Assembly: GCA_049967475.1 (NCBI GenBank)
Contig: JBMFSQ010000001.1
Coordinates: forward strand, 183,456-247,455
DNA: 64,000 bases
Source of the DNA: Chthonomonadales bacterium
GTDB taxonomy: Bacteria; Armatimonadota; Chthonomonadetes; Chthonomonadales; CAJBBX01
Direction: 5' to 3'
How positions within the stretch are numbered: position 1 is the stretch's first letter; each line of letters starts with the position of its first letter. The notes beneath the pieces are model-generated. The model was not told the DNA's origin and made no database searches. It saw only the letters and a list, made by a program, of their open reading frames with translations. Shown here in pieces: positions 13,253 through 59,825 of this stretch. A program made the position numbers and the translations under genes.

Positions 13253-13258
13253 CCGGCG

Positions 13259-13288
13259 TTGACATCGCCGAGCTCATGCGGCTATCCT
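13259..13288 (+). promoter_or_regulatory. Sigma70-type promoter TTGACA-18-TATCCT for glyS
   Basis: cgTTGACAtcgccgagctcatgcggcTATCCTcta. It leaves a leader of about 105 nt. Confidence 0.5.
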
Positions 13289-13401
13289 CTAGAGGCGGTC
13301 GGCACATCTGCTGGGCCTTCAACGAGGATGCCCACAGCGCACGCTTGCTTGCATAGGGCCTTCCGCCGCTGCGTTCTCATGATTAGGGAGTGGGCGCATC
13401 T

Positions 13402-28068: not shown

Positions 28069-28091
28069 GGGTGCCTCCTTTTACCCGGTAG

Positions 28092-28130
28092 GGCGAGGCG
28101 CACGGGGTGTAACCCAATCTGCGCCTCGCC
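28092..28130 (-). other. Intercistronic 11-bp GC hairpin between the DUF1559 gene and thiN (no U-tract)
   Basis: The minus strand reads GGCGAGGCGCAgattgggttacaccccgTGCGCCTCGCC. It begins 13 nt after the DUF1559 stop and ends 11 nt before the thiN SD. Confidence 0.6.
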
Positions 28131-28143
28131 GCGTGTCTTCGGC

Positions 28144-28887
28144 CTAGTCGCAGCCCCAATACCACATCTGCCCGGTGGCGGGGTTGATATCCCCGCTGCG
28201 CTGGCCGCCTGGGCAAACGACCTGGTTGTCAAAATCGGCGCTGCTCACGGTGAACTTGGCATGGCCATCGGCGAAGACCACGCCGCCACCGCGCGTATGC
28301 CACTGTTTATACCACGTAGGATAGTATCCGTATTTGTCCATGACGAAGAAGGGGAACATCTCGTCTCGGATGATGCGCGTCTCTGCCGGGAGCAAGAAGC
28401 TGGCGTCCGTTACGATGGTGGTGTAATCGTAGGGGGTGTTGTTCTGGGTAGATTCGCCGGCGACGATTGTATAGCTCCCGGCATTGAAGCGATAGCTCGA
28501 GCCATAGCACATCTGGTAGCTGGACATACCCGGGCAGCCGTAGAATGGATCGGCCAGGGCAGGGCCGCCCGTGTCATCAGGGCACTTGAAAAGATCCTTA
28601 TTCTTGCCATAAGGCAGGATCTCCAGTTCCACCCCCTTGTGCCCAGGCTGGCCGGCCGGCGGCTGGCTATTGTAGGCATAGAAGATGGGCATGGTCTCGT
28701 CATAATCCTGCACGTACATGCGCACCTGCATGCCGATTTGGCGGGCGTTGGAGAGGCAGGTGACCTCGCGGGCTTTCTCACGGGCCTGGGCGAAGACGGG
28801 GAAGAGTATCGCTGCCAGGATCGCGATGATGGCGATCACTACGAGCAGCTCGATGAGTGTGAACGCACGTCGTATGGTGCGGAGCAT
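28144..28887 (-). CDS. Prepilin-type N-terminal cleavage/methylation domain protein of the DUF1559 / H-X9-DG family
   Basis: [40 protein letters not shown] is the class III signal peptide plus the typical DUF1559 start. The C-terminal [13 protein letters not shown] is H-X9-DG. Start is ATG 28887 with GGAAAGGAAGG upstream. The remainder of ORF 28144..29142 is riboswitch RNA. Confidence 0.9.
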
Positions 28888-29001
28888 CCTCGGTCCTTCC
28901 TTTCCGGGGATGCCGGGGCGGCTTACTGGGCGCCCTCTTCGGATGGGGAACGGTGCGCCTCTCGCTCTGTGAACGGAAGGCGGCGGTCCCAGAGCCCTCG
29001 T

Positions 29002-29042
29002 AAAAACGAAGCGCCGCAGCCCTTTGGATGGAAAGCTGCGGC
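29002..29042 (-). terminator. Rho-independent terminator forming the expression platform of the TPP riboswitch
   Basis: The minus strand reads CGCCGCAGCtttccatccaaaggGCTGCGGCGcttcgttttt. This is a 9-bp GC stem followed by a U-run, 15 nt after the aptamer. Confidence 0.8.
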
Positions 29043-29056
29043 GTTCTAGCCGGTGT

Positions 29057-29153
29057 GCAACGCTTCCCTCCGTCGGCATTATCCGAATCAGGTGGTCAGG
29101 GTTCTTCGAGCTACCTCGAAGTCTCAGCCGGTTTCCCAGCACCCCTAGCGGTT
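29057..29153 (-). promoter_or_regulatory. TPP (thiamine pyrophosphate, THI-box) riboswitch aptamer
   Basis: The minus strand reads CCGCUAGGGGUGCUGGGAAACCGGCUGAGA-CUUCGAGguagCUCGAAG-AACCCUGACCACCUGAUUCGGAUAAUGCCGACGGAGGGAAGCG. Compare E. coli thiM: GGGGUGC...CUGAGA...ACCC.....ACCUGAUCUGGAUAAUGCCAGCGUAGGGAAG. All conserved blocks are present in order, and P1 is closable by CGCU/AGCG. Confidence 0.9.
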
Positions 29154-29178
29154 ACTGATTGTAAGGTGGTTCGATGTT

Positions 29179-29727: not shown

Positions 29728-31428
29728 TCATTTTGCCCCCCAGGCTGCTCGAGCGAAGGCTTCCAGGTCCTCATAGCGCTGCAACCACGTGGTGTACATC
29801 ACACCGTCTATTCCAGGCACGTTCTTGGCATCGTCGAGCCATTTGGCGATTGTGCCCGCATCCCTGTCGTAGTACCCTGCCAGGATCTGTTTATTCCCGC
29901 GGTTTGCGAAAAACGGCAGGCTCTTCTTCCGCCCGTCGAAGTTCCAGTTGACAATCCCCACGTCGGGAGACAGCCCCTCCCATGAGCCGGACCACGTGCC
30001 GTTGACCAGGTAATAGTCGTCATGTGCGTTGTGGCTAGGATCAAACATGTCGCTCCACACGTAGATGCGCGCTCGAGGACTTACCGAACGGATGATCGCG
30101 ACGCACCGACGCACGTTATCGGCCAGCATCTGGCCGGGCGTCATGCGGCGGGCCTGGCAGGCAGCGCACCAGTTGGCGATGCGGATCTCGTCGTGGGACA
30201 TCAGCACGGCTGTCGGGTGGAACAGGGCTTCTACGCGCCGCATTTGGTCCATCAGTACTTGGTAGACCTTGGGGTGTGTGAGGCAGCAGGTGGTCTGCAT
30301 GTCATAGATGAAGGCGGGGTGGTAGAAGCTGACCAACAGGCGCTGGCCTTCGCGTATGCGGGATTGCGGACTAAGGACGATGGGCGAGGCCTCGTGGTAG
30401 AGTTCGAACTCGCCGGGCCACGGAACGTTGCCCATCTTGGGATCCCGCACGGGTTCAAAATCGCGCCCTTCGATGTATTGGGTGCCATCCTCGGCGCGTA
30501 CCTTGAGCGGGCACCCTTCCCGGCGGATCACATTGACGAGCCCCAGTTCTTCGAGCCGCACATCGTCTATCCATAGGGTTCCGCCCTTGCCGCCCCACAC
30601 GCCGATATAGAGGTTGGCTTGTGATGAGTCGAGGCTGTTGAAGGTTACTTGGTGCTCCCGCCAGTCCTGCGTGGACCGCACTCCCAGGTTCTGTTCGCAA
30701 AGGTTGCGCTTGCCGGCGAGCATAAGGATGCGCACCTCGCCGGGCGTTTGGAAGTCGGCTGTCTTCATCCACGCGGTAAGGCGATAGTAGCGGTGGGGCT
30801 TCAGCGTCACTTGCTGCATGATGCGGCCATGCCCATATTGGGGATCGACTGTGCCTACGTTCTGGAAGCGCAGGGAGGCTCCACCGGAATGGCGCACCTC
30901 GCGATCTATGAAGCTGGCCTTACCGGGGAAATCCTGGAACTGCCAGCCCAGTGCCGTGGCCCCATTCGCCTCCTCGAACCCGCCGTTTCGGACGCCGATT
31001 GCCGGATCGGGTTCCAAAAACGCTTTGCCGTTGCGCACCCGAAACGGCGCATCTACCACGGGAATGCCTTCAACGAGGTTCGGGTCGTGAGCTAGGATCC
31101 CCGAGCTGTAGCCTATGGGAAACACTGCAGGAACCAATTCCAATTTGAGGGCCTTGGCCGTGTCGGCAATCCGGCGGGCGTTGTTGAAATACTCCGGGCC
31201 CATCCGGTCCAGGATATTGAGCTTATAATCTGCCAGCACGAACCCGTTGTACCCGCATGCGGCGGCCCGACGCATAACGCCCACGGCTGCGGACACGTTG
31301 GCATCTACGAGGAGGTTCGTGGAGAGGTAGAACCAGCGGTGGGGGATGGGGCGCGGAGCGTTTGGAGCAGCAGGCAGGTATACGCGGGCAGCGAGCGCCG
31401 CGCCGAGGCAGATCAGGGAGAGGGGCAT
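29728..31428 (-). CDS. Secreted hypothetical glycoside-hydrolase-like (TIM-barrel-like) protein with an inserted CBM4/9-type carbohydrate-binding module
   Basis: 566 aa with a signal peptide. The central NGGFEEANGATALGWQF...GGASLRFQN...YYRLTAWMKTADF...LYIGVWGGKGGTLWIDDVRLEE is the jelly-roll CBM4_9 pattern. The flanks (GYNGFVLADYKLN... and ...HDEIRIANWC...IYVWSDMFDP...GVMYTTW) look like the two halves of a barrel. No family name can be assigned from memory. Confidence 0.5.
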   Translation of the reverse strand: MPLSLICLGAALAARVYLPAAPNAPRPIPHRWFYLSTNLLVDANVSAAVGVMRRAAACGYNGFVLADYKLNILDRMGPEYFNNARRIADTAKALKLELVPAVFPIGYSSGILAHDPNLVEGIPVVDAPFRVRNGKAFLEPDPAIGVRNGGFEEANGATALGWQFQDFPGKASFIDREVRHSGGASLRFQNVGTVDPQYGHGRIMQQVTLKPHRYYRLTAWMKTADFQTPGEVRILMLAGKRNLCEQNLGVRSTQDWREHQVTFNSLDSSQANLYIGVWGGKGGTLWIDDVRLEELGLVNVIRREGCPLKVRAEDGTQYIEGRDFEPVRDPKMGNVPWPGEFELYHEASPIVLSPQSRIREGQRLLVSFYHPAFIYDMQTTCCLTHPKVYQVLMDQMRRVEALFHPTAVLMSHDEIRIANWCAACQARRMTPGQMLADNVRRCVAIIRSVSPRARIYVWSDMFDPSHNAHDDYYLVNGTWSGSWEGLSPDVGIVNWNFDGRKKSLPFFANRGNKQILAGYYDRDAGTIAKWLDDAKNVPGIDGVMYTTWLQRYEDLEAFARAAWGAK

Positions 31429-34348: not shown

Positions 34349-34939
34349 TTACCCGGCGCTTCCCGTTCTGTTAGCCAAAGCGCCGGAAGAATGGAGCCGC
34401 TCTGAGCGCAATCCGTGGTGCTGTTCACTGGTAAGAAGGTGTTCCCCGCAATGACCAATCACTACCAGCTTCCCTGCGTGATCCAACCAAAAGTGCAGGC
34501 GTACGTTTTGATTGCGCGCGAGGCGGCACTTCACATGGGGGCTGATGTCAATCGTTTGGCCTGCATACGTGCGCAGCCGCTGGCAAACGGCCGCCGCGAT
34601 GCGTTTGGATGATTTACTCTCGGTAAGGGCAAGAGTAAGCCCCGTACGATTGCGGAATTCGTCCTCTAGCGAAGCGCTTCCCTCCGTAAAGGCGAGGTGC
34701 CACAAAGGACCTGCAACGCTGTAGACGAGCTGCCACGCCCGGTCGGCGTCAGCGAGGGAAAGGGCCCCATGCCGGCGATCCCACGTTCGGGCCGAAGCGA
34801 ACGCTTCCGGTAAAACGAAGATACGGTTTGGGCACGTGGATTGGAAGAACGCTACGATGCCCGCGAGAGATCGCGGCAGGTCCAAAGGCATTCCATGCAA
34901 AGGTTTGTTTCCGGACGTACCGCTCGGATGATGCTCCAT
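34349..34939 (-). CDS. Hypothetical protein with C-terminal RelE/ParE-toxin-like segment
   Basis: 196 aa. VKCRLARNQNVRLHFWLDHAGKLVVIGHCGEHL aligns by eye with RelE yKIKLRssGYRLVYQVidekvvVfVIsVGKRe. More A/T-ending codons than its neighbours (by eye). Confidence 0.45.
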   Translation of the reverse strand: MEHHPSGTSGNKPLHGMPLDLPRSLAGIVAFFQSTCPNRIFVLPEAFASARTWDRRHGALSLADADRAWQLVYSVAGPLWHLAFTEGSASLEDEFRNRTGLTLALTESKSSKRIAAAVCQRLRTYAGQTIDISPHVKCRLARNQNVRLHFWLDHAGKLVVIGHCGEHLLTSEQHHGLRSERLHSSGALANRTGSAG

Positions 34940-45033: not shown

Positions 45034-45891
45034 ATGGAACGACGACCGTACGGCAACACGAAAGAACAACTCTCCATCATCGCATTCGGCGGGATTGTGG
45101 TGATGGGCTTGGATCAACAGGAGGCGGATCGTTGGGTGCGTGAAGCCTACGACCGCGGAGTGAATTACTACGACGTTGCGCCCAGCTATGGCGATGCGGA
45201 GGAGCGGCTAGGGCCTGCACTTAAGGGCATCCGCGACAGCATTTTCCTTGCATGCAAGACGGGCAAACGGCTCAAGAAAGAGGCGGCGGAGGAGCTTCGT
45301 GCTTCCCTGAAACGTCTGCGCACGGACCGCTTCGATCTCTATCAGTTGCATGCCCTCACCACAGATGAGGATATCGAGCAGGCGTTCGGTCCAGGCGGAG
45401 CCCTCGAGGCGCTCGTAGAAGCTCGGGAAGCCGGGCTCGTGAGATACCTGGGCTTCAGCGCTCATTCCGTGAAGGCTGCCTTGGCTGCTCTAGAACGCTT
45501 CCAGTTCGATTCGGTGTTGTTCCCTTTTAATATCACTGCGTACTCCACAGGGAACTTCGGTCCCCAGGTGCTCGAGGCGGCACAGACGCGCTGCGTGGCC
45601 CGTTTGGCTCTCAAAGCCATGGCGAAGGGTCCATGGCCGGATGGGGCCGATCGCAGCGCCTACCCCAATTGCTGGTACGAACCCCACACCGATCCGGAAG
45701 TTGCGGAACTTGCGTTGCGCTGGACCCTTTCGCTGCCCATCACAGCCGCTGTGCCCCCGGGAGATCCCAAGCTTTATCGGATGGCTCTTACCTTCGCGGA
45801 GCGCTTCCGGCCTCTAAGTGATGAGGAACTGGAACGGGCGCAAGCGCTTGCGCGGCAGGCAACTCCCCTTTTTCGCCAGGAGGCAGCCTAG
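45034..45891 (+). CDS. Aldo/keto reductase
   Basis: GVNYYDVAPSYGDAEE, DRFDLYQLH and YLGFSAH. Confidence 0.85.
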   Translation: MERRPYGNTKEQLSIIAFGGIVVMGLDQQEADRWVREAYDRGVNYYDVAPSYGDAEERLGPALKGIRDSIFLACKTGKRLKKEAAEELRASLKRLRTDRFDLYQLHALTTDEDIEQAFGPGGALEALVEAREAGLVRYLGFSAHSVKAALAALERFQFDSVLFPFNITAYSTGNFGPQVLEAAQTRCVARLALKAMAKGPWPDGADRSAYPNCWYEPHTDPEVAELALRWTLSLPITAAVPPGDPKLYRMALTFAERFRPLSDEELERAQALARQATPLFRQEAA

Positions 45892-45955
45892 GGCAATCGG
45901 GGGCTCGAGCTGGTCCCAGCCCGACCCCCGGTCCCGGCCTCCCGCAGCGGCATCT

Positions 45956-46612
45956 TTAGGGTGTCGCGGGGTGCCTGTTGATCGCCGTGCCCACCCGCAC
46001 GCCGATCAATTCGGTGCCATGCTGGAGCCAGACACTGCCGTCGTCAATCGCCTGGATGCGCCAACCTTTGGCGACGGCATCGCCCGGGTGCAGGATCATG
46101 ATCTGCCCTTGCACCTCCAGCGTGGCCACCGACCGATCTCCTCGGACGATGCCGATTACGCGGATCTCCGGTCGCTCTTCGGCCGGTTTGGCGAGTTCTG
46201 CAGGCATACCGGGCAGCACGCTCCCTGCGGCGATGGGCGGAAGGGGTTGCGGGCGGATGGGGGACACATCCACCTTTGGCGCAGGTGCTGGTGCAGAGGT
46301 TGGGTTGGATACCGGCCCCTTGGCATGCAGCGGCGTAAAGGGGTCGGGAATAGGCGGCTCTGGCTCGGGTTCTTTGCGAGCGGCAATGGCCTTGGATGTG
46401 GGGAAGTCCGGAGCGGGCGCGGCCTGCGGGGTACTCGCCGGCGGCGTGGGTGCCGGGGCTCCTGCGGAAGGTACTGGGGCAGGTACCTGCCGTGTCTTAG
46501 GCGCGACTACGCCCAATAGGGTGTGGACTACGAAGAACATCACCACAACGATGAGGCCGATGAGCGCTGAAGCCTTCATCCGCTCTGCGGGAGATAAGGT
46601 TGCGAAGTTCAT
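45956..46612 (-). CDS. PilP-like pilus/secretion assembly protein (N-terminal TM, Pro-rich linker, C-terminal beta domain)
   Basis: TM segment ALIGLIVVVMFFVVHTLLGVV. A PAPVPSAGAPAPTPPASTPQAAPAP linker. The C-terminal IRVIGIVRGDRSVATLEVQGQIMILHPGDAVAKGWRIQAIDDGSVWL resembles the PilP/GspC-HR beta-sandwich pattern. It sits directly after the secretin gene. Confidence 0.45.
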   Translation of the reverse strand: MNFATLSPAERMKASALIGLIVVVMFFVVHTLLGVVAPKTRQVPAPVPSAGAPAPTPPASTPQAAPAPDFPTSKAIAARKEPEPEPPIPDPFTPLHAKGPVSNPTSAPAPAPKVDVSPIRPQPLPPIAAGSVLPGMPAELAKPAEERPEIRVIGIVRGDRSVATLEVQGQIMILHPGDAVAKGWRIQAIDDGSVWLQHGTELIGVRVGTAINRHPATP

Positions 46613-46645
46613 GGCAGGTCTCCTGAATGGCGCCGCGACAGGGTG

Positions 46646-48403
46646 CTACTGTGGCAAGATCTTGATGGTGAGAAAGACCATCACTTCGGAGCGCCGGTGG
46701 TCGCGATACTCATTCTTGAACAGGTATCCCAGGATGGGCAGGTCGCCCAGGAACGGTATCTTGGACATCGCCTTGACGTCGTCATCGCGGATGAGCCCGC
46801 CGATAACGATGGTGTCGCCATCCTTCACACGCACGATGGTCTCGGCTTCGCGGGCGCTGGTTTGAGGCAGCCCGTTTGAGATGGCGCTTACGGTACTCAC
46901 CACCGGGTGCACCCTGAGTGTAATGTTGCCGTCGTCATTCACGCGCGGGTGGACCAGCAGGATGATGCCCACGGGCACCTCCACGACGGTGAACTGATTG
47001 CCGGCGGTGGCACTGCTCTGGGCGAGCGTTTGGAAGCGGAGCGTGTCGCCGATGAAGATGGATGCATCTTGGTCGTTCAGTACGGCAATCTGGGGGCTTG
47101 CCAGCAGCTTCGCCTTCTTGTTGGTGATGAGGGCGTTGAGGGTGGCTCCCGGTGTGAATTGCACTCGCCCGAAGGTCCCGAACCCTGCCGGTCCCACAGG
47201 CAAGGGCGAGGAGGGTACCACGTTGGTGCTCAACTGAGGGCGTTCTACAAACAGGAACTGGTTCCATTGCCACTCAACGCCGAGGTTCCGCAGTTCTTCT
47301 GGGGAGGTGTCCACGACCTTCGCCTCAACCATCACTTGGCGAGGCGCTTGATCTTCCGCCTCCAGCAGGTGCAGCGCATCCTGAACGGCTGCCGATGGGC
47401 CCTTGAGGATCAGGGACAGGGCATTCTTGCTGATCTGGCCGTTTTGGCTGTTGGGCTGCCCGGGCAGACCGTTGGTGCCGTTAGGCGTGAGGGTATTGGT
47501 TTGGCTTCCAATCCCGATGCCCCCCACGAACTGCCCGCTGAGGGGCCGAAATTGCGGTACGGCCGGAGCTGCGCTCTCGGGACCCGCGATGACTTGCACG
47601 TCCGGATAGGCTTGCTGCACCATCTGGGCGAGCTGGTCCGCTGCGCTGAACTTGATGCGGTATACCTTCGTGACGAAATCCGCATTCGGTTGGACGTCGA
47701 GCATGGATGCTCCAGCCTTGGCGGCCTCCACGTCGGCGCGGGTTCCCGACACGATGATGGCGTTGCCGGCCGGCTCGACACTTACGCCCGGGACGATCTT
47801 TGCCAAAGCCGGAGCGATCTGGGCGCCGGTGCGGTTCTGCAACGCGATGCGCTCAGACACGCGCCGGCTATCGGGCGTATCGAGGTCATTTTGGTGGAGG
47901 AACTTCTCGGCTGCGTCCACATCATCCGGGGCACCTATGAGAACGACCGCCTTCCCCTGCGGATGGGCGGTGACGTCTGCGAAGGCGTTCTGGGCAAGGT
48001 CGGCTGCAGCCTGGGCCGGAAGATGTTCCAGGCTTACTGAGCGGCTGATGCCGAGGCGCTCCAACGTTTGCCGCATCTCGCTGCGGGGAGCAATGACATA
48101 GGTGCCGTTCACCTTCTTCGCTTGAAGCCCTGCGAGGTTGGTTACAAGGCCCAAAGCCTCATCCACCGTCTTCTTGCGCAGGTGCAACGTCACCTGTCCC
48201 TTGACGCTGGGATTGAGAGCGATGTTGATGCCGCTCTGCGCAGCCAGGGCTCGGATTACGTCTGCGACGTCGGCATTGACGTAATCCAGCGTGATGGTAG
48301 CGGCATTCGGCGGGAGTTTGTTCGCCGTGCCGTCAGCCCCGCGGGCTGCCAAGGGCAGCATCGCTATGGTGAGTGCTCCGCATAAGAGCGTGTAGGTTTT
48401 CAT
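46646..48403 (-). CDS. Secretin (PilQ/GspD family)
   Basis: Signal peptide MKTYTLLCGALTIAMLPLAARGADG at ATG 48403 (GAGGGG upstream). Secretin_N-like repeats. The C-terminal LASPQIAVLNDQDASIFIG...GDTIVIGGLIRDD...IPFLGDLPILGYLFKN is the secretin domain. Confidence 0.9.
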   Translation of the reverse strand: MKTYTLLCGALTIAMLPLAARGADGTANKLPPNAATITLDYVNADVADVIRALAAQSGINIALNPSVKGQVTLHLRKKTVDEALGLVTNLAGLQAKKVNGTYVIAPRSEMRQTLERLGISRSVSLEHLPAQAAADLAQNAFADVTAHPQGKAVVLIGAPDDVDAAEKFLHQNDLDTPDSRRVSERIALQNRTGAQIAPALAKIVPGVSVEPAGNAIIVSGTRADVEAAKAGASMLDVQPNADFVTKVYRIKFSAADQLAQMVQQAYPDVQVIAGPESAAPAVPQFRPLSGQFVGGIGIGSQTNTLTPNGTNGLPGQPNSQNGQISKNALSLILKGPSAAVQDALHLLEAEDQAPRQVMVEAKVVDTSPEELRNLGVEWQWNQFLFVERPQLSTNVVPSSPLPVGPAGFGTFGRVQFTPGATLNALITNKKAKLLASPQIAVLNDQDASIFIGDTLRFQTLAQSSATAGNQFTVVEVPVGIILLVHPRVNDDGNITLRVHPVVSTVSAISNGLPQTSAREAETIVRVKDGDTIVIGGLIRDDDVKAMSKIPFLGDLPILGYLFKNEYRDHRRSEVMVFLTIKILPQ

Positions 48404-48524
48404 TCGTGCCCCTCGATCCGTCGAACGCCGCGTGCCTGCGATGCGTTCGGTTTTTGACTTGTCCGTGTCCTTCTCTCGGCAGCTCATCATGAGGCGAGCC
48501 TTTCTTCCTGGGCAGGCTGGTGTG

Positions 48525-49121
48525 CTAGGGCTTGCCCGGCTGGGCGGGGCCAACCGGCGCGTCCACATAGCGCGTAACCGTTATCGTGGTTTGAAGAGAC
48601 GGATATCCTTTGCTCCCGGGCGTTACCCTGAGGTCCGTCAGCGAGATCAACCGCCGAGACGCTTCGAGGCCTTTGAGGAAGGCGCGCAGGGACGGAAAGG
48701 TGCCTTCAAACGTTATCGGGCTTTTGATGGCCAGCACATCCTGAGGTAGAGCATCCGCCGGCTTGGGAGCCTGGGGTGAGCCGGGCGGTGGGGGTGGCGC
48801 AGGCGGCGGGGGCGCCAGGGAGGCGATGGAAAGAAGCCGGTTCCCTGTGCGGTTGCACAACGTCGCCAGACCTCGCAGAAACTCGGCCTGCTCTTCTTTG
48901 GACATGGGCAGCGTGGCCACGGTGGGATCCGGAGGCAGCTTGCTGATCTCGTCCAGTTGCACCAAGTAGCTTCGCACGTCCGCTTGGGTTGCGCGGATGC
49001 TCTGGTGGAGTTCGCGGAGCTTGTGTTGCCGCGGGAACATCACTACGCAACATACCAGCAGCGATAAGGGCGGCATAAGCAGCACGATGGCGCGCTGAAG
49101 CCACGCAGGAAGAGCATTCAT
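48525..49121 (-). CDS. PilO/GspM-like inner-membrane assembly protein
   Basis: MNALPAWLQRAIVLLMPPLSLLVCCVVMF TM segment, then a coiled region and a small C-terminal domain. AAGGAGG lies 7 nt upstream. ATG is 1 nt after the upstream stop. Confidence 0.5.
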   Translation of the reverse strand: MNALPAWLQRAIVLLMPPLSLLVCCVVMFPRQHKLRELHQSIRATQADVRSYLVQLDEISKLPPDPTVATLPMSKEEQAEFLRGLATLCNRTGNRLLSIASLAPPPPAPPPPPGSPQAPKPADALPQDVLAIKSPITFEGTFPSLRAFLKGLEASRRLISLTDLRVTPGSKGYPSLQTTITVTRYVDAPVGPAQPGKP

Positions 49122-49122
49122 A

Positions 49123-50799
49123 CTAGCTGCCTCCTTGACTACTTGCTTGAGCCTGATTGGCCTGGGGGGCGGCATTGGCCTGCACCACGGGCTGGACGAA
49201 GCTCGTTTGAAGGTCGAAGTGGATGCCGCCTCCGTTGTTAGGGTCTATGCGGGCCAAGTTGTTCATACGCACGGGCTCAAGGCTGGGTGAAAGATTGAGA
49301 GTGTCCATCACATCCGCAACGGCCTTGGGGGTGGGCGCTTCGCCGCTTATGGTGATGACGCCGTTGGCATCCATGCTCAAATTCACCAGGGAGGCTCTGC
49401 GCGACACGGAGGCTGCTACAAAGTCCAGCGCCTCGCGGAGCGGCTTCGAGCGATGATGAATGGCCTCTGTCAGGTTCTTCTGCCGTTCCAGCAGCGCCAC
49501 CTTGGCGGCATGCTCTGCTTTGAGGGCGTTCAGCTCGGTGCGGAGTTGCGTGAGGTTGCGCTGAGAACGCGATATGGCGCCGCCTACGACAATGGCAGCC
49601 AGGATGGTTCCCACCATAATAACGGAGCTTGCGGCGGCGCTCAGCATGATGGCCTTGGGCGCCATGCGCCGTTCCACCACCACGCGGTCGCCGGCAACCA
49701 GGTCCAGGCTTGGAGCGGCGTCGTAGGGACTTCCCATTCCGCGCAGGGCCAGCCCCACGGCCACGGTGTATCGGAAGGCGTCGGCGCCCTTCAAAACGGC
49801 TGCGGCCTCCGGAGCCACATTGAGGGTGTCCAACGCCGAGGCGAGTTCGGCGGCTGTGCGCAGATGCTGCGTAAGAACCTCAAAAAGTTGGGCGGCATCC
49901 GGTGCGTCTATGGCGAACCGAGCCAGCATCGTCTCCCCGGCCGAGGGGAACTCACGGATGTAGTAGTCTATGGACCTTTGCACTTCCGTCATGAGGAGGC
50001 CGATTGCTTGGCGGTTGTACGGTTCGTACTCGGGCGCGGACGACGGAGCCTCCTCGTCGTCGCCTCCGAGGCTCACGAGGAGGCCGCCCCTGGGCTGATT
50101 TCCGGACGACGGAGTGCCTGGGTTCGCCGTACGCAATTCCGGCACGCCGGTGTCTATGCGCCGGTAAAACTGAAGTTGGCCGTGGTGGGTGATGAAGACG
50201 TCGGTGCCTGTGGCCGAAAGCACTACGCTCGCTACCGAACCCTCGTTGCACAGCATAGGGTAGAGAGCGCGCAAGAGAGCTATGGATCCGGGTTCCACCG
50301 CAGCCAGCGGCAGGTTGGCTTCGTCCATAGTAGCCCGGTAACTCGCCACCAGCCGTTCTTCGGCCCCCATGAGCAGGATGCGGAGCACGGGTTCCTCGCC
50401 TGCCGCCTGAGCGTCTTTGTCGCCAACATCGGGGAGCTTGAAGTAATCGAAGGCGCTCTGCCCTGCCGGGAGGATGCGGTAATGGTCCATCTCTCCCCGC
50501 AGTACAGATCGGATCTCGCCGTCGGGGACGGGTGGGATCTCCATCACGCGGGCAACGAGGCTGCAGTTGGTGAGACCCATGACGATCTGGCTCGCCTTGG
50601 GATCCAGTTCTACGCAGAGGCGCCGTACAACACCTGCTACCACATGCGGGTCGAGCAGCCCCTCCTCGTCCACTGCGCCTTCGGGGATCGGCAGAGCGCG
50701 CACACCGGCCAATTGGGGAGCAGGCCCGGATTGCCGCACATAGGCTGCCCGAACCTGGTCGTTGGACACCTCGATGCCGATAACCGCTCGATGTTTCAC
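49123..50799 (-). CDS. PilM-PilN fusion protein (actin-like ATPase domain + TM + PilN-like domain; GspL-like architecture)
   Basis: 558 aa. The N-terminus AVIGIEVSNDQVRAAYV and about 370 aa of PilM-like sequence. Then the TM segment AIMLSAAASSVIMVGTILAAIVVGGAI, a coiled coil LTQLRTELNALKAEHAAKVALLERQ, and a PilN-like tail (VSRRASLVNLSMDANGVITISGEAPT). Confidence 0.7.
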   Translation of the reverse strand: MKHRAVIGIEVSNDQVRAAYVRQSGPAPQLAGVRALPIPEGAVDEEGLLDPHVVAGVVRRLCVELDPKASQIVMGLTNCSLVARVMEIPPVPDGEIRSVLRGEMDHYRILPAGQSAFDYFKLPDVGDKDAQAAGEEPVLRILLMGAEERLVASYRATMDEANLPLAAVEPGSIALLRALYPMLCNEGSVASVVLSATGTDVFITHHGQLQFYRRIDTGVPELRTANPGTPSSGNQPRGGLLVSLGGDDEEAPSSAPEYEPYNRQAIGLLMTEVQRSIDYYIREFPSAGETMLARFAIDAPDAAQLFEVLTQHLRTAAELASALDTLNVAPEAAAVLKGADAFRYTVAVGLALRGMGSPYDAAPSLDLVAGDRVVVERRMAPKAIMLSAAASSVIMVGTILAAIVVGGAISRSQRNLTQLRTELNALKAEHAAKVALLERQKNLTEAIHHRSKPLREALDFVAASVSRRASLVNLSMDANGVITISGEAPTPKAVADVMDTLNLSPSLEPVRMNNLARIDPNNGGGIHFDLQTSFVQPVVQANAAPQANQAQASSQGGS

Positions 50800-50849
50800 G
50801 GCTCTAACTCCCTACTCAAGATGATCACTAGTCATTTCGGCGCGGGACA

Positions 50850-51356
50850 TCATTTCTCGCGAAACCGCACCCGGCTGGAGAGGCGGCGCGTAAATCCGTT
50901 GATATTGACTACCACGACGATATCGGCGGCCCCCACCGAACCTGGAACAGCGGGCGACGTGGACGACACCCAGGCTGATCCGTTCCACGTGTAGTAAGTG
51001 AGCGATAGCGACTGGACCCCGGCTAAGATTTGATTGCCGCCGGCCGGCACGTTGTTCACCGAGGTGCGCAAGGTGCCGTCGGTGGCCACCCAATAACGGA
51101 TGCTGTTGCCCGCATTGTCCGAAAATGTAACGTCGGACGGCGAGGCTGATACGAGCCCAGACGTGCCCCGCAAATGGTCTGCAAAAAGGTCCACAACCTG
51201 GCGCGCGTTGGCGTTGGCAGTGTTCTGGTTGATGAGCATGTATTCCGCGTCATAAGCGCTGCGCACCAGCGTCCAGAGGCCGGCGCCGATGATTACGGAT
51301 ATGAGCCCTGCGACCAGCATCTCGATGAGGGTGAAGCCTGCACGCCGGTTCTTCAT
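50850..51356 (-). CDS. Prepilin-type N-terminal cleavage/methylation domain minor pseudopilin
   Basis: MKNRRAGFTLIEMLVAGLISVIIGAGLW. ATGA overlap with the upstream gene. Confidence 0.8.
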   Translation of the reverse strand: MKNRRAGFTLIEMLVAGLISVIIGAGLWTLVRSAYDAEYMLINQNTANANARQVVDLFADHLRGTSGLVSASPSDVTFSDNAGNSIRYWVATDGTLRTSVNNVPAGGNQILAGVQSLSLTYYTWNGSAWVSSTSPAVPGSVGAADIVVVVNINGFTRRLSSRVRFREK

Positions 51357-51811
51357 ATTCCTGCCCTCACGAGGTACGTGCCCGTTTGATAGAGGATCGT
51401 ATTCGTCCCCGACAGCTTTACCGTAATGTTGACGGTGCGAAGGGCATTATCGGCAGGCACTGCGCCGGGTTGCCCCGCTGTCCCCGATTTGACGGCGTCG
51501 CTCACGACGCTGACCGTAACGGTGTAGCGGTTGGACGGACTCGCCTGCGCCACCGGGGTCTCCGAGCCGTCGTAGTACGTCGTTACCGTTCCTTCCGCCT
51601 GGCCGGCGAAACCGTTCATCTTGACTTGTTCCATTGCGTACCGCCCAAGGTTATAGGCCACGCCAAGGTCGTCCGACGCGGTGGTGATGTTGAACGAAAA
51701 CACCCATGCGTTGATGAGACCCATCAAACCAATGGCAAGCAGGAGTGAAGCGATGAGCAGCTCAACCAGGGTGATCCCCTGCACCGTTTGCTTGTGTCGT
51801 TGCTTCATCAT
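51353..51811 (-). CDS. Prepilin-type N-terminal domain minor pseudopilin
   Basis: MMKQRHKQTVQGITLVELLIASLLLAIGLMGL. GAGGAAG SD upstream of ATG 51811. Confidence 0.75.
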   Translation of the reverse strand: MMKQRHKQTVQGITLVELLIASLLLAIGLMGLINAWVFSFNITTASDDLGVAYNLGRYAMEQVKMNGFAGQAEGTVTTYYDGSETPVAQASPSNRYTVTVSVVSDAVKSGTAGQPGAVPADNALRTVNITVKLSGTNTILYQTGTYLVRAGI

Positions 51812-51923
51812 AATGCTTCCTCGACCTTGGCCTAAGCCCGCGCGGCCAAACGTATCGTTCCATAGATTGCGGGTTGGATCGCCACACTTTTTGTGGGTTC
51901 CAGCACTCTGCGCCTCCAATGGG

Positions 51924-53111
51924 CTACAGGCCGGGCGTTGTTTCGGTCCATGAATTGTCGAAGCCGTAATAGCTGTAACTGGACGGCTGGGCGAGGCCCG
52001 GAATAAAGTTGATGGTGATGTTGCCGTTGATATCCATCTTGTTCGCGATGATTTGCCCGTTCGTGATGGGGTTGCCGCTGTTGGTTACATAACCGTAGGG
52101 ATTTCCGGAGGCATCTTTGTTGTATGCGTAGATGCACGCGTCAATCTCTTGGTTGCCGGCCAGGTTGATGCCGCTGGTAGTGGCGACGTAGATATGCACG
52201 TTGGGCGTTTTGCTCATGGACACTGCAGCGGTGCCGCCTCGGAAGTTGCAAGTACCGCTGCCCCCGTCCGGCCCCACCCAAAGGTTGATCGGGCCATTGG
52301 CATTGTTGAAGTAGATCTGATCATTCCCTTTGAGGTTGATGTTCGTAACGTAGTAGTTTCCGGGACCGAGGGTGATGGAACTGGTGATGCTGTTGTTGAG
52401 GATGCCCGCTGCTGCGTTGTCATTATGAGTGGCCAGCCAGGCCATGCCTCCGTTGGGGAACATTCGGTTTGCTATCTCATCAATAGTGGGCCACGAGAGT
52501 GGGCGGGGATATCGGAACACCGTGTAGCCGCCCGGATCGTTGCCGTCGTACCATCCGGCGTTGGGCCCGTCGAAGAAGACACTGCCGATTACGGTGGGTG
52601 TGCCCGAGAAGTCAAAGTATCCGTTGGTGCCGATGTCGCCGGTGATTGTGATGGCGGATCCGTGGAAGACGCTGGTGCCCATCATGGTGTAGATCGCGAA
52701 GCGGTTGGAGGGATAAAAGCCCTTGCCCGACACCTTGATGGACCGCGTTACTCCCTTGTAGCTGCCGGTTGCCAGCACATAGAGGTAATTGGAGGGATCC
52801 CAAGGCATGGACCCGTCCCGGTTCGTGCACCATACCGTGAATGTGCCCTGGGGAACCGCATACGTTGTAGGAGCCAGATCCGCTTGCGTGGGATCGTTAC
52901 TGATCTTGTGGAATTCATAATTCACACCCGCTTCGGCCAAGTTCAGTGCTGCGGAAAAGCGGGCGTCCATAGTGGCCCGTTCCTGGTGGGCGGTGGTGAG
53001 GAAGCCGATCCCCAGGAGCAGGATGGACACGATGAGGATCATGTAAAGAGCGGTTATGAGGGCAAAGCCTCGAGCTCTTGTTTGCCGGGAGCATTGTGAG
53101 GCGGACATCAT
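51924..53111 (-). CDS. PilX-like large minor pilin with Asn/Gly-rich beta-helix-like C-terminal domain
   Basis: MMSASQCSRQTRARGFALITALYMILIVSILLLGIGFLT is PilX_N-like. The C-terminus is rich in NG/GN repeats (ITGDIGTNGYFDF, INLKGNDQIYFNNANGPINLW, NGQIIANKMDINGNITINF). Confidence 0.65.
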   Translation of the reverse strand: MMSASQCSRQTRARGFALITALYMILIVSILLLGIGFLTTAHQERATMDARFSAALNLAEAGVNYEFHKISNDPTQADLAPTTYAVPQGTFTVWCTNRDGSMPWDPSNYLYVLATGSYKGVTRSIKVSGKGFYPSNRFAIYTMMGTSVFHGSAITITGDIGTNGYFDFSGTPTVIGSVFFDGPNAGWYDGNDPGGYTVFRYPRPLSWPTIDEIANRMFPNGGMAWLATHNDNAAAGILNNSITSSITLGPGNYYVTNINLKGNDQIYFNNANGPINLWVGPDGGSGTCNFRGGTAAVSMSKTPNVHIYVATTSGINLAGNQEIDACIYAYNKDASGNPYGYVTNSGNPITNGQIIANKMDINGNITINFIPGLAQPSSYSYYGFDNSWTETTPGL

Positions 53112-56871: not shown

Positions 56872-57567
56872 ATGATCGAACTTCACGATGTGTCCGTCGT
56901 TTACCCCGGAGAACGCACGGCCCTCGCGCACGTGTCGCTCCGCATCCATAAGGGCGAATTCGTTTTCATCGTGGGCCCCACAGGGTCCGGCAAATCTACC
57001 CTGCTCAAGCTGCTCTACCGAGAAGAACTTCACATCAAAGGCAAGGTGCTCGTGTCCGGAAGAGATCTCACCACACTCCGCCCGCGCGAAGTTCCCTTCC
57101 TGCGCAGGCGCCTAGGCATCGTATTTCAGGATTTCGGCCTCTTGCCTAACAAGACCGTCTTCGAGAACGTTGCCTACGCCTTGCGGGTGATCGGAGCCGG
57201 GCGAAAGGAGATCCGACGCAAGGTGCCTCCGGCGTTGGAGCTTGTGGGCCTGGTGCATCGGTGCGATGCCTTCCCCGGTCAGTTGTCTGGAGGGGAGCAG
57301 CAGCGCGTGGCCATTGCCAGGGCGCTGGTGAATGACCCGCCGCTGCTTCTGGCCGACGAGCCCACCGGCAACCTCGATCCCGAGACTTCCTTGGGCATCC
57401 TGCGCATCCTGGAACATGTTAACGTTCGCGGCACCACCGTACTGGTAGCCACGCACGACAAGTACATTGTGGATTGCGCCCGCAAACGGGTGGTAGCCCT
57501 CGAACGCGGGCACCTCGTGCGAGACGAGTTGGAAGGGACCTACGAGCGTGAGCCTGTCGTCCATTAG
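56872..57567 (+). CDS. ftsE: Cell division ATP-binding protein FtsE
   Basis: GPTGSGKSTLLKLL, LSGGEQQRVAIARAL and LLLADEPTGNLD. Followed by ftsX. Confidence 0.9.
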   Translation: MIELHDVSVVYPGERTALAHVSLRIHKGEFVFIVGPTGSGKSTLLKLLYREELHIKGKVLVSGRDLTTLRPREVPFLRRRLGIVFQDFGLLPNKTVFENVAYALRVIGAGRKEIRRKVPPALELVGLVHRCDAFPGQLSGGEQQRVAIARALVNDPPLLLADEPTGNLDPETSLGILRILEHVNVRGTTVLVATHDKYIVDCARKRVVALERGHLVRDELEGTYEREPVVH

Positions 57568-58453
57568 CTTCTTGATGGGGGAAGCAGCCAGAGACATCCG
57601 GCGCAACGGCCTCATGTCGGTGGCGGCGCTCACTACGTCGGCCATCTCGTTGACGGTTCTGGGAGGTGCCTTATTCACTCTCTATCGCCTCCACCAGTTT
57701 GCCGATGCCCAGCCCCGCCGGTTCGAGATCTCGGTATTCCTGCGCCCGGAAGTTCCCCGCGCTGCCGTCAAAGAGATCCGCAGGCGCATCCAATCGCTGC
57801 CGCCGGTGGAGCGCGTAACGCTCTTCACCAAGGAACAGGCTTATACCGAACTTCAGCAGGCCGACCGCGAGAGCAGCACGGCGATCGTAGCGGCGCTGGG
57901 GGGAGCGAACCCACTGCCGGACCGGCTGGATGTGCGTCTGCGGGATCCTTCGGCTACGGGTATGATTGCGGCGGTGCTCCAGGATCGGGCGCGGTTTCCT
58001 GAAGTGGATCGCGTGCGCACGGCCCGGGACGCCTTGCAGGTATTCCTGGGGGTGCAACGGATCGTTCGCAATGTGGGAGGGGGCCTTGCCGCACTTTTGT
58101 TCATCGGAACGGCCTTCGTCATCCAGAACACAATCCGCCTAACTGTGATTGCGCGGCGGCGGGAGATCCGCATCATGCAGTTAGTGGGAGCCACACCGGG
58201 CTTCATCCGGATGCCCCTCGTGCTGGAAGGAATGTTCTACGGCGTCTTCGGCGCGCTGGTGGCAGGAGGTGTGGTGCTCTTTGTTGTGGCTCAGGTGTCT
58301 TCCTATGGTCGGCGCATCGTGTCCCCTCTGGCTCATACCATGCCGCCGGCTGTGGGGCCATGGACGGTGATGGCAGTGCTGGTGGCCATCGGCGCCCTTT
58401 TAGGCTCGTTGGGAAGTGCGCTCTCCATCAGGAGGTTTTTGAAGGCTGTTTAG
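57548..58453 (+). CDS. ftsX: Cell division permease FtsX
   Basis: EAARDIRRNGLMSVAAL, a periplasmic domain and three C-terminal TM helices. It overlaps ftsE by 20 nt (ATG 57575 is an alternative start). Confidence 0.85.
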   Translation: MSLSSISFLMGEAARDIRRNGLMSVAALTTSAISLTVLGGALFTLYRLHQFADAQPRRFEISVFLRPEVPRAAVKEIRRRIQSLPPVERVTLFTKEQAYTELQQADRESSTAIVAALGGANPLPDRLDVRLRDPSATGMIAAVLQDRARFPEVDRVRTARDALQVFLGVQRIVRNVGGGLAALLFIGTAFVIQNTIRLTVIARRREIRIMQLVGATPGFIRMPLVLEGMFYGVFGALVAGGVVLFVVAQVSSYGRRIVSPLAHTMPPAVGPWTVMAVLVAIGALLGSLGSALSIRRFLKAV

Positions 58454-58520
58454 TCTTTGACCCGGCGCGGCCGGCGTTTGTGCCCGCACGAACGGTGCGG
58501 CGGGCAAAAAGGGAAGGGAC

Positions 58521-59672
58521 ATGCGCAATAACTGGGTGGCCGGTTTCCTTGTTGCTGCGGTGCTCAGCGCGCTGGGTTGCGCTGCGGCAGCGGCACCGCA
58601 TCACAGCAAGACAGGAAAATCGCCCAAAGAACTGCGCCGGCAGCTCCATGCGGTGCGCGCCCGCATCCACGCTCAACGGCTCGAGGTGCGGCGCACTCGG
58701 GCAAAAGAGCATCATGTGGTGGGAGAGATAGACCGCATCGAGGCCCGCATCCTCACTACGGAACAACGCCTGCGCGCTGTAAAGAGCAGATTGGCGGCGA
58801 TCGCCCGGCGCAGGAAGGTGTTGATTGCCCGCATGGATTTTACGCAGAAGCGCCTCGACGGCCGAAGGCGTGTCCTGGCCAGGCGCCTTAGGGAGAACTA
58901 CGAATTGGGCAGCACTTCGTACGTGCAGGCGCTTCTGAGTTCACGATCCATGCACGACTATCTCTCCAGATCCTATTATGTGGAGCGCATCGTTGAAAGC
59001 GACGTCAAGCTCATGGCCGGGATCAGGGAGGATCAGGCGCAGCTCCTGGCAGATCAGCGTGAGCTGGATGCCCGGGATGCGGAACAACGGGTGCTGAAGG
59101 CCGAATTGGAGCGCTCCTACTTCCAGTATCGCGAGGATGTTTTGGCCAAACGGCGCACCCTCGAGCAGATCCAGGAGGACCGTGAAGCCAAAGAGGCAGC
59201 CCTGGACGAATTGGAGGAAGCCTCCAACGAGATCGCTGCCCGGCTTCGAGCTTTGGAGCAGACGCCCGGCGGGCGGGCACGTCTTCTGCGCGCATGGACC
59301 GGGCACTTCATTCGGCCTGCGTGGGGACCCATAACGAGCGGCTTCGGCATGCGGTACCATCCCATTCTTCATCGCACGCGGATGCATACGGGCGTGGATA
59401 TCGGTGCGGGATATGGAGAACCCATTCGCGCTGCCGCTGCGGGCGAAGTCGTAATGGCCGGTTACATGCGCGGCTATGGGTACGTGGTGATCATTGACCA
59501 TGGGGGCGGAGTGTCCACACTCTACGGCCATTGCTCCGAGTTGCTGGTGTCGGAAGGGCAAAGCGTTCGGCAGGGGCAGGTGATCGCCCGCGTTGGGAGC
59601 ACTGGGCTGGCCACCGGGCCTCATCTTCACTTCGAGGTGCGGCGCAATGGGGTGCCGGTGAACCCCTTCTAG
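58521..59672 (+). CDS. M23 family metallopeptidase with N-terminal coiled coil (EnvC-like murein hydrolase activator)
   Basis: Signal peptide, a long coiled coil (LRAVKSRLAAIARRRKVL...), then HTGVDIGAGYGEPIRAAAAGEV...GGVSTLYGHCS...GPHLHFEVRRNG. Confidence 0.85.
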   Translation: MRNNWVAGFLVAAVLSALGCAAAAAPHHSKTGKSPKELRRQLHAVRARIHAQRLEVRRTRAKEHHVVGEIDRIEARILTTEQRLRAVKSRLAAIARRRKVLIARMDFTQKRLDGRRRVLARRLRENYELGSTSYVQALLSSRSMHDYLSRSYYVERIVESDVKLMAGIREDQAQLLADQRELDARDAEQRVLKAELERSYFQYREDVLAKRRTLEQIQEDREAKEAALDELEEASNEIAARLRALEQTPGGRARLLRAWTGHFIRPAWGPITSGFGMRYHPILHRTRMHTGVDIGAGYGEPIRAAAAGEVVMAGYMRGYGYVVIIDHGGGVSTLYGHCSELLVSEGQSVRQGQVIARVGSTGLATGPHLHFEVRRNGVPVNPF

Positions 59673-59698
59673 GCAGGGGCTTCCGCATGGGCAAGGCG

Positions 59699-59728
59699 TT
59701 GACGCGGCCGGGGAGGGCTGGATATACT
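59699..59728 (+). promoter_or_regulatory. Sigma70-type promoter TTGACG-18-TATACT for tRNA-Val
   Basis: gcgTTGACGcggccggggagggctggaTATACTgat. It lies about 25 nt before the tRNA 5' end. Confidence 0.55.
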
Positions 59729-59752
59729 GATAGCGGACGGTCGCGACATCGC

Positions 59753-59825
59753 GGGCGAATAGCTCAGCCGGAAGAGCGCTTGCTTTACACGCAAGATGTC
59801 GGGGGTTCGAGTCCCTCTTCGCCCA
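59753..59825 (+). tRNA. tRNA-Val (anticodon TAC)
   Basis: GGGCGAATAGCTCAGCCGGAAGAGCGCTTGCTTTACACGCAAGATGTCGGGGGTTCGAGTCCCTCTTCGCCCA. Acceptor 7 bp GGGCGAA/TTCGCCC. D stem GCTC/GAGC. Anticodon stem CTTGC/GCAAG with loop TTTACAC. T arm GGGGG-TTCGAGT-CCCTC. No encoded CCA. Confidence 0.95.

Follow-up and report, generated by a model that had tools for sequence, protein, structure and literature searches.

A motor-less minor pilin, PilM-PilN fusion and secretin cluster in a Chthonomonadales bacterium, most likely a conserved paralogue of complete type IV filament loci in its relatives

We analysed a 64,000-nt stretch of contig JBMFSQ010000001.1 (assembly GCA_049967475.1, positions 183,456 to 247,455 of the forward strand) from a Chthonomonadales bacterium of the Armatimonadota, here called the window, which holds a compact cluster of genes (g1 to g7) for minor pilins, a PilM-PilN fusion (PilMN), a PilO-like protein, a secretin and a connector protein. 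An earlier sequence-only reading had described seven co-directional genes between positions 45956 and 53111, and seven minus-strand open reading frames (ORFs) were indeed found there with the content and order that it gave (Table 1). The two tight junctions that it had pointed out were likewise recovered, with g2 and g3 overlapping by 4 nt (ATGA) and g5 starting 1 nt past the g4 stop codon (TAG-T-ATG), while the remaining intergenic gaps measure 33-121 nt and Shine-Dalgarno-like motifs are present. For g1, g2, g5 and g6, the starts follow the genes called in L012, a relative with 89% identity (L numbers denote loci from related genomes).

Table 1. Positions of the cluster genes, their domains and the thiamine-linked genes in the window
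Feature	Position	Strand	Description
g1	51924-53111	-	Large PilX/GspK-class minor pilin, 394-395 aa; start from 394-aa gene call in L012
g2	51353-51811	-	Minor pilin, 152 aa, PilV/GspI class; leader QG/ITLVE
g3	50850-51356	-	Minor pilin, 168 aa; leader AG/FTLIE
g4	49123-50799	-	PilM-PilN fusion, 558 aa, GTG start; actin-like PilM joined end to end with PilN
g4, cytoplasmic PilM domain	49729-50799	-	Residues 1-357, ends GLALR
g4, linker motif	49657-49713	-	Residues 363-381, PsLDLvaGDrVvvERRmAP
g4, single transmembrane helix	49573-49653	-	Residues 383-409; hydrophobic stretch in sequence
g4, periplasmic PilN domain	49201-49416	-	Residues 462-533; PF05137 match
g5	48525-49121	-	PilO/GspM-like bitopic protein, 198 aa
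g6	46646-48403	-	Secretin, 585 aa
g7	45956-46612	-	GspC/PilP-equivalent connector, 218 aa; identical to NCBI MGC8666673.1 (ACP5VE_00960)
g7, HR/PilP-type domain	45989-46171	-	AlphaFold2 model and Foldseek
DUF1559/SBP_bac_10 protein	28144-28887	-	Prepilin-type; true start near 28887
Thiamin pyrophosphokinase	27433-28023	-	Second gene behind TPP riboswitch
SSF-family symporter	25976-27436	-	Third gene behind TPP riboswitch

Comparison with L012 gave ratios of nonsynonymous to synonymous substitution (dN/dS) of 0.03-0.13 in all seven genes at a dS of about 1 (0.05 for g1 and g2, 0.04 for g3, 0.03 for g5 and 0.13 for g7), and the GC content at third codon positions was 0.70-0.76 across the cluster. 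On the strength of these values and of the junctions, we take the cluster to consist of expressed, selected genes and not of chance ORFs of a 62% GC genome, and it is most likely a functional operon of this bacterium. A scan of the locus for consensus sigma-70 promoters and terminators was uninformative. A G+C-rich inverted repeat (CGGGGGTCGGG...CTCGAGCCCCCG) occupies window positions 45890-45956, in the 64-nt gap between g7 and a convergent aldo-keto reductase gene; it may be a bidirectional terminator and was missed by the consensus scan because it has no T-run.

When the three upstream products were tested for prepilin-type class-III signals, g2 and g3 matched the N_methyl family, g2 with an E value of 2.5e-4 and g3 with 24.8 bits, above the cut-off, and the g1 leader (RARG/FALIT) was class-III-like and lacked Glu5, as in GspK/PilX-class subunits. 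The g2 product is conserved among relatives and scores 33 bits on the PilV model TIGR02523, under its 52-bit cut-off. Behind a long N-terminal helix, g1 carries a C-terminal, beta-helix-like DUF7305 domain (28 bits, above cut-off) that was found in six of seven homologues, and a weak PilX_N match (E 0.07-0.09) was shared by four of the seven. A single-sequence AlphaFold model of g1 reached a mean predicted local distance difference test (pLDDT) score of only 37.6, so that a GspK/PilX-like fold of g1 is putative. In two relatives (L005:5522-9293 and L008:5471-9293) about 2 kb of extra sequence with at least one additional gene lies between the g1 homologue and g2, and for that reason the tip-pilin part of the operon is more variable than the core that runs from PilMN to the connector.

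The fourth gene is the most distinctive of the cluster. Both of its halves exceed their Pfam cut-offs (PilM_2, 38 bits; PilN, 23.6 bits), and residues 4-355 align to positions 3-348 of the 348-position model TIGR01175, that is, to the whole of PilM. Its sequence matches in the PDB are PilM only (3jc8, 2ych and 5eou), and neither the T2SSL/GspL_C families nor any GspL in the PDB gave a match; the cytoplasmic domain is PilM-type. Past the GLALR end of this domain follow a linker segment, one transmembrane helix, a coiled coil and the PilN domain. The linker has the 80% consensus P.LDL..GD.V..E.R.AP in 13 homologues and, judged by its position, would be the counterpart of the N-terminal PilM-binding peptide of PilN (the INLLP motif); given that correspondence, the PilM-PilN fusion appears to have arisen independently of the one that gave GspL. 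A GTG or TTG start is kept in 12 of 13 homologues. A full HMMER scan returned 1668 representatives of the fusion (clusters at 50% identity) at E <=0.001 and 324 at 1e-10, most of them 520-580 aa long and aligning end to end over their full length, and the family is apparently centred on the Armatimonadota. A metagenome scan returned mostly ordinary, unfused PilM genes, and its only new loci were L022, L023 and L025.

Besides its N-terminal transmembrane helix, the g5 product contains a coiled coil, a Pro-rich insert and a C-terminal domain. All of the family matches obtained for it were weak and under cut-off (PilO, E 0.012; T2SSM_b, E 0.014; GspM_XpsM, E 0.003, 17 bits against a cut-off of 60), and PilO proteins took the first three places when its profile was run against the PDB (E 0.12-0.21). 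Much stronger matches were obtained for g6, which combines a Sec signal peptide, an N0/STN domain, three Secretin_N-type stretches and a C-terminal secretin domain (Secretin PF00263, 152 bits against a cut-off of 27.5; Secretin_N, 58 bits over the three stretches; STN, 37; GspD_N0, 28), and in which domain searches found neither an AMIN domain nor an S-domain. All three curated secretin models nevertheless stayed below their cut-offs: GspD (TIGR02517) at 213 bits against 351, with an end-to-end alignment, PilQ (TIGR02515) at 189 against 284 and MshL (TIGR02519) at 152 against 250. Against PDB sequences, the secretin scored 105 bits with PilQ and 99 bits with GspD.

The last gene had been called PilP-like and placed after the secretin; the position was confirmed, whereas the name is better changed to GspC-like. 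In this protein, a Pro-rich linker, of which a DPF.P motif is invariant, lies between an N-terminal transmembrane helix (residues 14-35) and an HR-type beta domain of about 60 residues at the C-terminus (148-208), and there is no lipobox, no PDZ domain and no GspC-type coiled-coil domain. Its own family matches were below cut-off (GspC_delta, 23.8 bits against 150; pilP_fam, 21.2 bits), but among 17 homologues eight matched T2SSC (PF11356, best E 4.5e-6) and none matched the PilP family of Pfam. A profile search against PDB sequences gave no match, and the fold search was the informative one. The AlphaFold2 model is confident in the C-terminal domain only (pLDDT 91-95, residues ~150-210), and for this domain Foldseek ranked the GspC HR domain 3oss_C first (TM-target 0.82, root-mean-square deviation 1.3 A), followed by PilP (2y4y, 2ivw and 2lc4), LspC, GspB and PulC. 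In view of the T2SSC and PilP counts and of the best Foldseek match, we regard g7 as a PilP/GspC-equivalent connector that is closer to GspC; by the precedents of GspC-GspD (3oss) and PilP-PilQ, its HR domain is predicted to bind the secretin N0 domain.

The cluster encodes no engine. The sequence-only reading had listed no ATPase, platform protein, prepilin peptidase or major pilin within 10 kb on either side, and this absence holds for the entire 64 kb: a search for GspE/PilB/PilT Walker A motifs found none there, with FtsE as the sole exception, T2SSE, T2SSF and Peptidase_A24 domains were likewise lacking, no PilT retraction ATPase was present, and a tblastn search of the window with the ATPase, platform and major pilin of a relative gave no match. 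Such an absence is not odd in itself, since the genes of type IVa pilus (T4aP) systems are normally spread over several loci (PMC6668835) and Chthonomonas genomes have a dispersed, non-operonic gene organisation (PMC4959169). Because the cluster encodes none of these components, all four must come in trans: the ATPase, the platform, the prepilin peptidase and the major subunit. Armatimonadota genomes are known to encode PilB, PilC, PilD, several PilT and dozens of PulG-like prepilins, and fimbriae are documented in the phylum, with six PilT genes in Fimbriimonas (PMC4072686).

The surroundings of homologous clusters bear directly on where such an engine might come from. In GTDB, the closest species representatives are Chthonomonadales/Chthonomonadaceae metagenome-assembled genomes (MAGs) with a PilMN identity of 48-62%, and loci of 11 GTDB species representatives, as well as L012, L013, L022 and L023, show the same order g(1)-g2-g3-PilMN-PilO-secretin-g7, with flanks that vary and with order and overlaps kept down to ~48% identity. 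No engine gene, the ATPase included, was present in the fetched flanks of these loci. A second group, made up of distant homologues, has the engine attached, in the order PilB-like ATPase of the cyclic di-GMP (c-di-GMP) type, platform, one to five tandem major pilins, minor pilins, PilMN, PilO-like protein, secretin and GspC-like protein. In L014, a 572-aa MshEN plus T2SSE ATPase, a T2SSF platform and three tandem pilins of 140-155 aa are followed by collinear homologues of all seven window genes (tblastn E values from 3e-12 to 5e-127). L017 has the order ATPase-platform-PilMN-PilO-secretin-connector, and the complete-locus pattern is repeated in L020, in L021, which is labelled Chthonomonadales and has five pilins in tandem, and in L025; no prepilin peptidase gene was seen in L014, L017, L020 or L021. 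Orthologues of the ATPase are present in several MAGs of Chthonomonadales and Fimbriimonadales, with 56-65% identity in those of Chthonomonadales.

Neighbour-joining trees of PilMN and of the secretin gave the same two-way split, with the ATPase-linked loci (L014, L017 and L020) in clade A, and the window cluster and L001-L013, all motor-less, in clade B, to which L016 is sister; the loci from the metagenome scan fall in clade B (L022 and L023) and clade A (L025). Among 127 full-length representatives of the fusion, 98 are nearer to clade A and seven clearly nearer to clade B. Both types are held by one MAG (GCA_027319965.1), in which L014 of clade A and the motor-less, four-gene L016 have similar composition (GC 0.537 and 0.546, tetranucleotide r 0.95). 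The GC contents of L013 and L020 differ (0.568 vs 0.629), and these two loci, although found in the same sample, were therefore not counted as one genome. Thus, the earlier reading's alternative, in which a complete locus elsewhere would have the cluster as its standard pilMNOPQ module, was not what we saw, as the complete loci have PilMN, PilO, secretin and GspC-like genes of their own. The window cluster is most likely a conserved motor-less paralogue (clade B) of the complete locus and not merely the split-off half of a single system.

Several features of the relatives' loci were noted in passing. L016:10001-14791 is a PilMN-PilO-secretin-connector module with no pilin or ATPase gene and adjoins an NADH dehydrogenase (nuo) operon. 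Directly after the platform gene, L014:5552-7221 and L021:4267-6693 encode three and five near-identical major-pilin paralogues of 127-155 aa, respectively, with conserved cysteines and a CPNGGxY motif. The ATPases of L014:2075-3793 and L020:10001-11716 bear an N-terminal MshEN c-di-GMP-binding motif (RLGEQLLAAGIIDEDQLNQALSRQ), and since the NCBIfam c-di-GMP motif model passes its cut-off in the clade-A ATPases (54-58 bits vs 38), the clade-A machines are probably switched by c-di-GMP. In the Chthonomonadaceae locus L018, the pilin gene after the platform (13180-13441) is interrupted by what seems to be a 1-nt frameshift near position 13300, beyond which it runs on in another frame as CRANMQTIANAV...; this is probably an assembly error.

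Taken as a whole, we consider it fairly probable that the cluster is the envelope-plus-tip module of a filament machine of the T4aP or type II secretion system (T2SS) class, paralogous to a complete locus and served by an engine in trans. In such a machine, a prepilin peptidase encoded elsewhere would process g2, g3 and probably g1, and g1 (K/PilX-like), g2 (I/PilV-like) and g3 would assemble at the tip into a complex from which the filament starts to grow. An inner-membrane cage would be made of PilMN together with the PilO-like protein, and its cytoplasmic PilM ring would dock a PilB-type extension ATPase and the platform, while membrane-anchored g7 would span the periplasm and clamp the cage to the secretin N0 through its HR domain, and g6 would be the outer-membrane pore for the filament. 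The most economical source of the engine would be a clade-A locus of the same genome, in which case the cluster would provide a second conduit and tip for one engine. The protein contacts, the supply in trans, the sharing of a motor and the choice between a long pilus and a short pseudopilus are in this scheme modelled on analogous systems. Some observations weigh against it: the clade-A loci are those of relatives, and a clade-A locus in the window's own genome is a supposition, as is any number of ATPase/platform pairs there; the only genome with both clades is an MAG of unlabelled taxonomy whose L016 has no minor pilins; the PilM domains of clades A and B are only 26-29% identical, which means that the clade-B PilM may dock a different ATPase; and the PilO and PilX assignments lie under curated cut-offs.

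Whether the machine is a type IV pilus (T4P) or a T2SS could not be told from gene content in the earlier reading, and the profile scores still place the family between the two. On curated NCBIfam models, the ATPase, platform and pilin of clade A all fall under cut-off and between the families, with 598-601 bits for PilB (TIGR02538, cut-off 676) vs 571-597 for GspE in the case of the ATPase, and 380 bits for GspF vs 364 for PilC in that of the platform. Against the PDB, the full-length ATPase scores 505-511 bits with PilB/PilF and 382 with GspE, whereas the cores are about equal, near 377; its N-terminus is PilB/MshE-type. Features that lean towards T4aP are the complete PilM, the PilN-type junction motif, the PilV and PilX_N leanings, the PilB/MshE-type ATPase and the tandem cysteine pilins, and features pointing to T2SS are the L-like topology of the fusion, the GspC-like connector, the GspD-like secretin layout and the gsp-like gene order of L014. 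On balance, we lean towards a pilus-forming machine.

Known systems share parts of this architecture. The pilMNOPQ operons of T4aP (Pseudomonas aeruginosa, Myxococcus xanthus and, as pilMNOWQ, Thermus thermophilus) likewise run from PilM, PilN and PilO types to a secretin, apart from pilB, pilC, pilD and pilA, and use minor pilins to prime the filament, and the PDB matches of g4 point the same way. They differ from the window cluster in that its PilM and PilN are one polypeptide with an LDL..GD motif where the PilN N-terminal peptide would be, its PilP slot is taken by a membrane-anchored GspC-like protein after the secretin with no PilP lipoprotein, its secretin lacks AMIN and has N-domains in a GspD-like layout, its minor pilins lie within the same operon, and it is a second, motor-less paralogue and not the sole alignment module. 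With the T2SS the cluster shares a fused, L-like topology (a cytoplasmic actin-like domain, one transmembrane helix and a periplasmic ferredoxin-like domain), an M-like partner, a C-like HR connector, a D-like secretin and a three-member tip set with one large subunit that lacks Glu5; PulL itself has been described as a PilM plus PilN fusion (PMC10191384). Unlike the T2SS, its cytoplasmic domain is a complete PilM with a PilN-type junction motif, so that the fusion looks independent of GspL, and the C-like protein lacks PDZ and coiled-coil domains, the secretin lacks an S-domain and no Gsp equivalog score exceeds its cut-off, while the linked ATPase of relatives has its PilB/MshE-type N-terminus.

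Other comparisons concern smaller or more distant systems. The orphan GspC-GspD pair XphA/XqhA of P. aeruginosa forms a functional hybrid with the Xcp engine (PMC6567927, citing Michel et al. 2007); it resembles the window cluster as an envelope module outside a main locus, with function in trans a suggestion by analogy for the latter, which is much larger and comprises tip pilins, an L-like fusion and M-, D- and C-like proteins. In the mshI-J-K-L block of the MSHA system, MshI may be a PilM/PilN-like fusion. The block resembles the cluster in its PilO-like, PilP-like and secretin genes, and the clade-A loci have MshEN-type c-di-GMP-binding ATPases, but the g6 secretin scores well below the MshL cut-off, the connector gene follows the secretin, and no MshM or MshN was seen. 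The Akkermansia Amuc_1098-Amuc_1101 cluster also combines a secretin with a long PilM-like protein in a non-proteobacterial diderm; it is a different family, and it was rejected as a candidate on weak NCBIfam matches to Amuc_1098 and Amuc_1101 (25.8 bits vs a cut-off of 650 and 73.8 vs 750). A competence (ComG) pilus was rejected as well, as only weak ComGD, ComGE and ComGF matches were obtained (E ~0.007-0.09) and a secretin is present. Armatimonadetes systems are not itemised in the supplements of Denise et al.

Three other explanations of the cluster have to be set against that of a paralogous envelope module. It would be a T2SS-like machine if a short periplasmic pseudopilus pushed folded exoproteins, for example the many glycoside hydrolases of the lineage, through the secretin, with GspE, GspF and GspG encoded elsewhere. 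In favour of this are the match of membrane-anchored g7 to T2SSC and not PilP, the GspL topology of the PilM-PilN fusion, the end-to-end GspD alignment of a secretin with N0 and three N-domains but no AMIN, the resemblance of L014 (E-F-G...K-I-J-L-M) to gsp operons and the report of T2SS in Armatimonadetes (PMC6668835); we nonetheless find it somewhat unlikely, as g4 has a full PilM and PDB matches to PilM and not GspL, the clade-A ATPase is PilB/MshE-type at its N-terminus, the 3-5 tandem cysteine-containing pilin paralogues of clade-A loci are typical of pili, GspD, GspE, GspF, GspG and GspM scores are all below curated cut-offs, and Armatimonadota have fimbriae and several PilT. That the genes would be an ordinary pilMNOPQ-plus-minor-pilin operon of one T4P-like machine, with pilB, pilC, pilA, pilD and pilT scattered and no second PilMN/secretin set, we judge unlikely. 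The multi-locus nature of T4aP and the gene dispersal of Chthonomonas would suit such a split system, and the ATPase contigs L018 and L019 (Chthonomonadales/Chthonomonadaceae) stop right past the platform or pilin gene, with the continuation unseen. Where the contig does continue, however, as in L021 and L020 (whose ATPase is 74% identical to a Chthonomonadales one), the ATPase, platform and pilin genes run into minor pilins and PilM(N) of their own, and the PilMN and secretin trees part the ATPase-linked sets from the motor-less ones, with one MAG having both. The absence of engine genes would also fit a decaying remnant of a duplicated pilus locus, but seven intact ORFs with ribosome-binding-site-like motifs and with order and overlaps kept to ~48% identity make this barely credible, and we rejected it on the dN/dS values.

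The sequence-only reading had further proposed the cluster as the assembly machine for prepilin-like DUF1559 proteins, one of which is encoded in the window (Table 1); this found no support here. In none of the related loci does the cluster have a linked DUF1559 gene, and the window copy lies 17 kb off in a separate operon. It is the first of three genes, spanning 25976-29156 with a preceding thiamine pyrophosphate (TPP) riboswitch (RF00059, 69.9 bits, 29048-29156, minus strand), which look like a thiamine-salvage or uptake operon headed by a pilin-anchored protein resembling solute-binding proteins, and DUF1559 proteins may be ligand-capture subunits. Planctomycetes are rich in DUF1559 proteins. 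A dedicated machine that assembles or displays GspG-like DUF1559 (SBP_bac_10) prepilins, including the riboswitch-controlled one, would find some backing in the GspG-like class-III N-terminus of the window protein (cleavage context RRA/), in the dozens of PulG-like genes of Armatimonadota (PMC4072686) and the unknown function of DUF1559 in the literature (PMC10632474), and in the lack of a major pilin of its own in clade B, whereas clade A has one. This last point makes the link, a speculation, slightly more attractive; with no DUF1559 gene adjoining the cluster in any related locus, and the window copy sharing its operon with genes for thiamin pyrophosphokinase and an SSF transporter, we hold it to be very doubtful. 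More doubtful still is the joint proposal that clade B borrows the PilB/PilC engine of clade A to polymerise DUF1559 prepilins into a short pseudopilus with ligand-binding heads for nutrient capture, and the same low standing applies to its corollary that the riboswitch-controlled protein would be one such clade-B cargo. In L013 (15036-21683), from a distant Chthonomonadales relative, the cluster adjoins an opposite-strand thiamine biosynthesis operon (ThiD/E, ThiO, ThiS, ThiG and ThiC), probably by coincidence, since this was seen in one locus only.

Both flanks of the window cluster consist of housekeeping genes. On one flank, it is bordered by genes for a metallo-beta-lactamase-fold hydrolase, a zinc-ribbon protein, FtsEX, an M23 peptidase and YchF, and on the other by genes for an aldo-keto reductase, GH38, UvrD, MnmE, a lactate/malate dehydrogenase-family protein and an ABC sugar transporter. 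Within 56872-59825, the FtsE-FtsX-M23 peptidase genes, the last with a PcsB-like coiled coil, form a cell-division hydrolase module, and a tRNA gene (59753-59825) follows it. Two minus-strand ORFs of 566 and 196 aa (29728-31428 and 34349-34939) had no Pfam match at E 0.001, and the shorter one sits within a run of ABC sugar-transporter and fucosidase genes.

The PilM-PilN fusion family represents a lineage of type IV filament machines that is large and as yet uncharacterised, and as a mosaic of T4aP and T2SS features it is relevant to the origin of the T2SS from T4aP; a naturally fused PilM-PilN is also a possibly useful construct for structural work. For annotation, the cluster is a warning that a locus which looks "incomplete" need be neither a split system nor an array of pseudogenes and may instead be an accessory module that is conserved. 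If the reading that joins clade B to DUF1559 were true, the large DUF1559 family would gain both a machine and a function. Above all, a conserved motor-less paralogue poses the question of whether one ATPase/platform engine can serve two envelope conduits and tip complexes, a form of sharing so far known only for the small XphA/XqhA pair.

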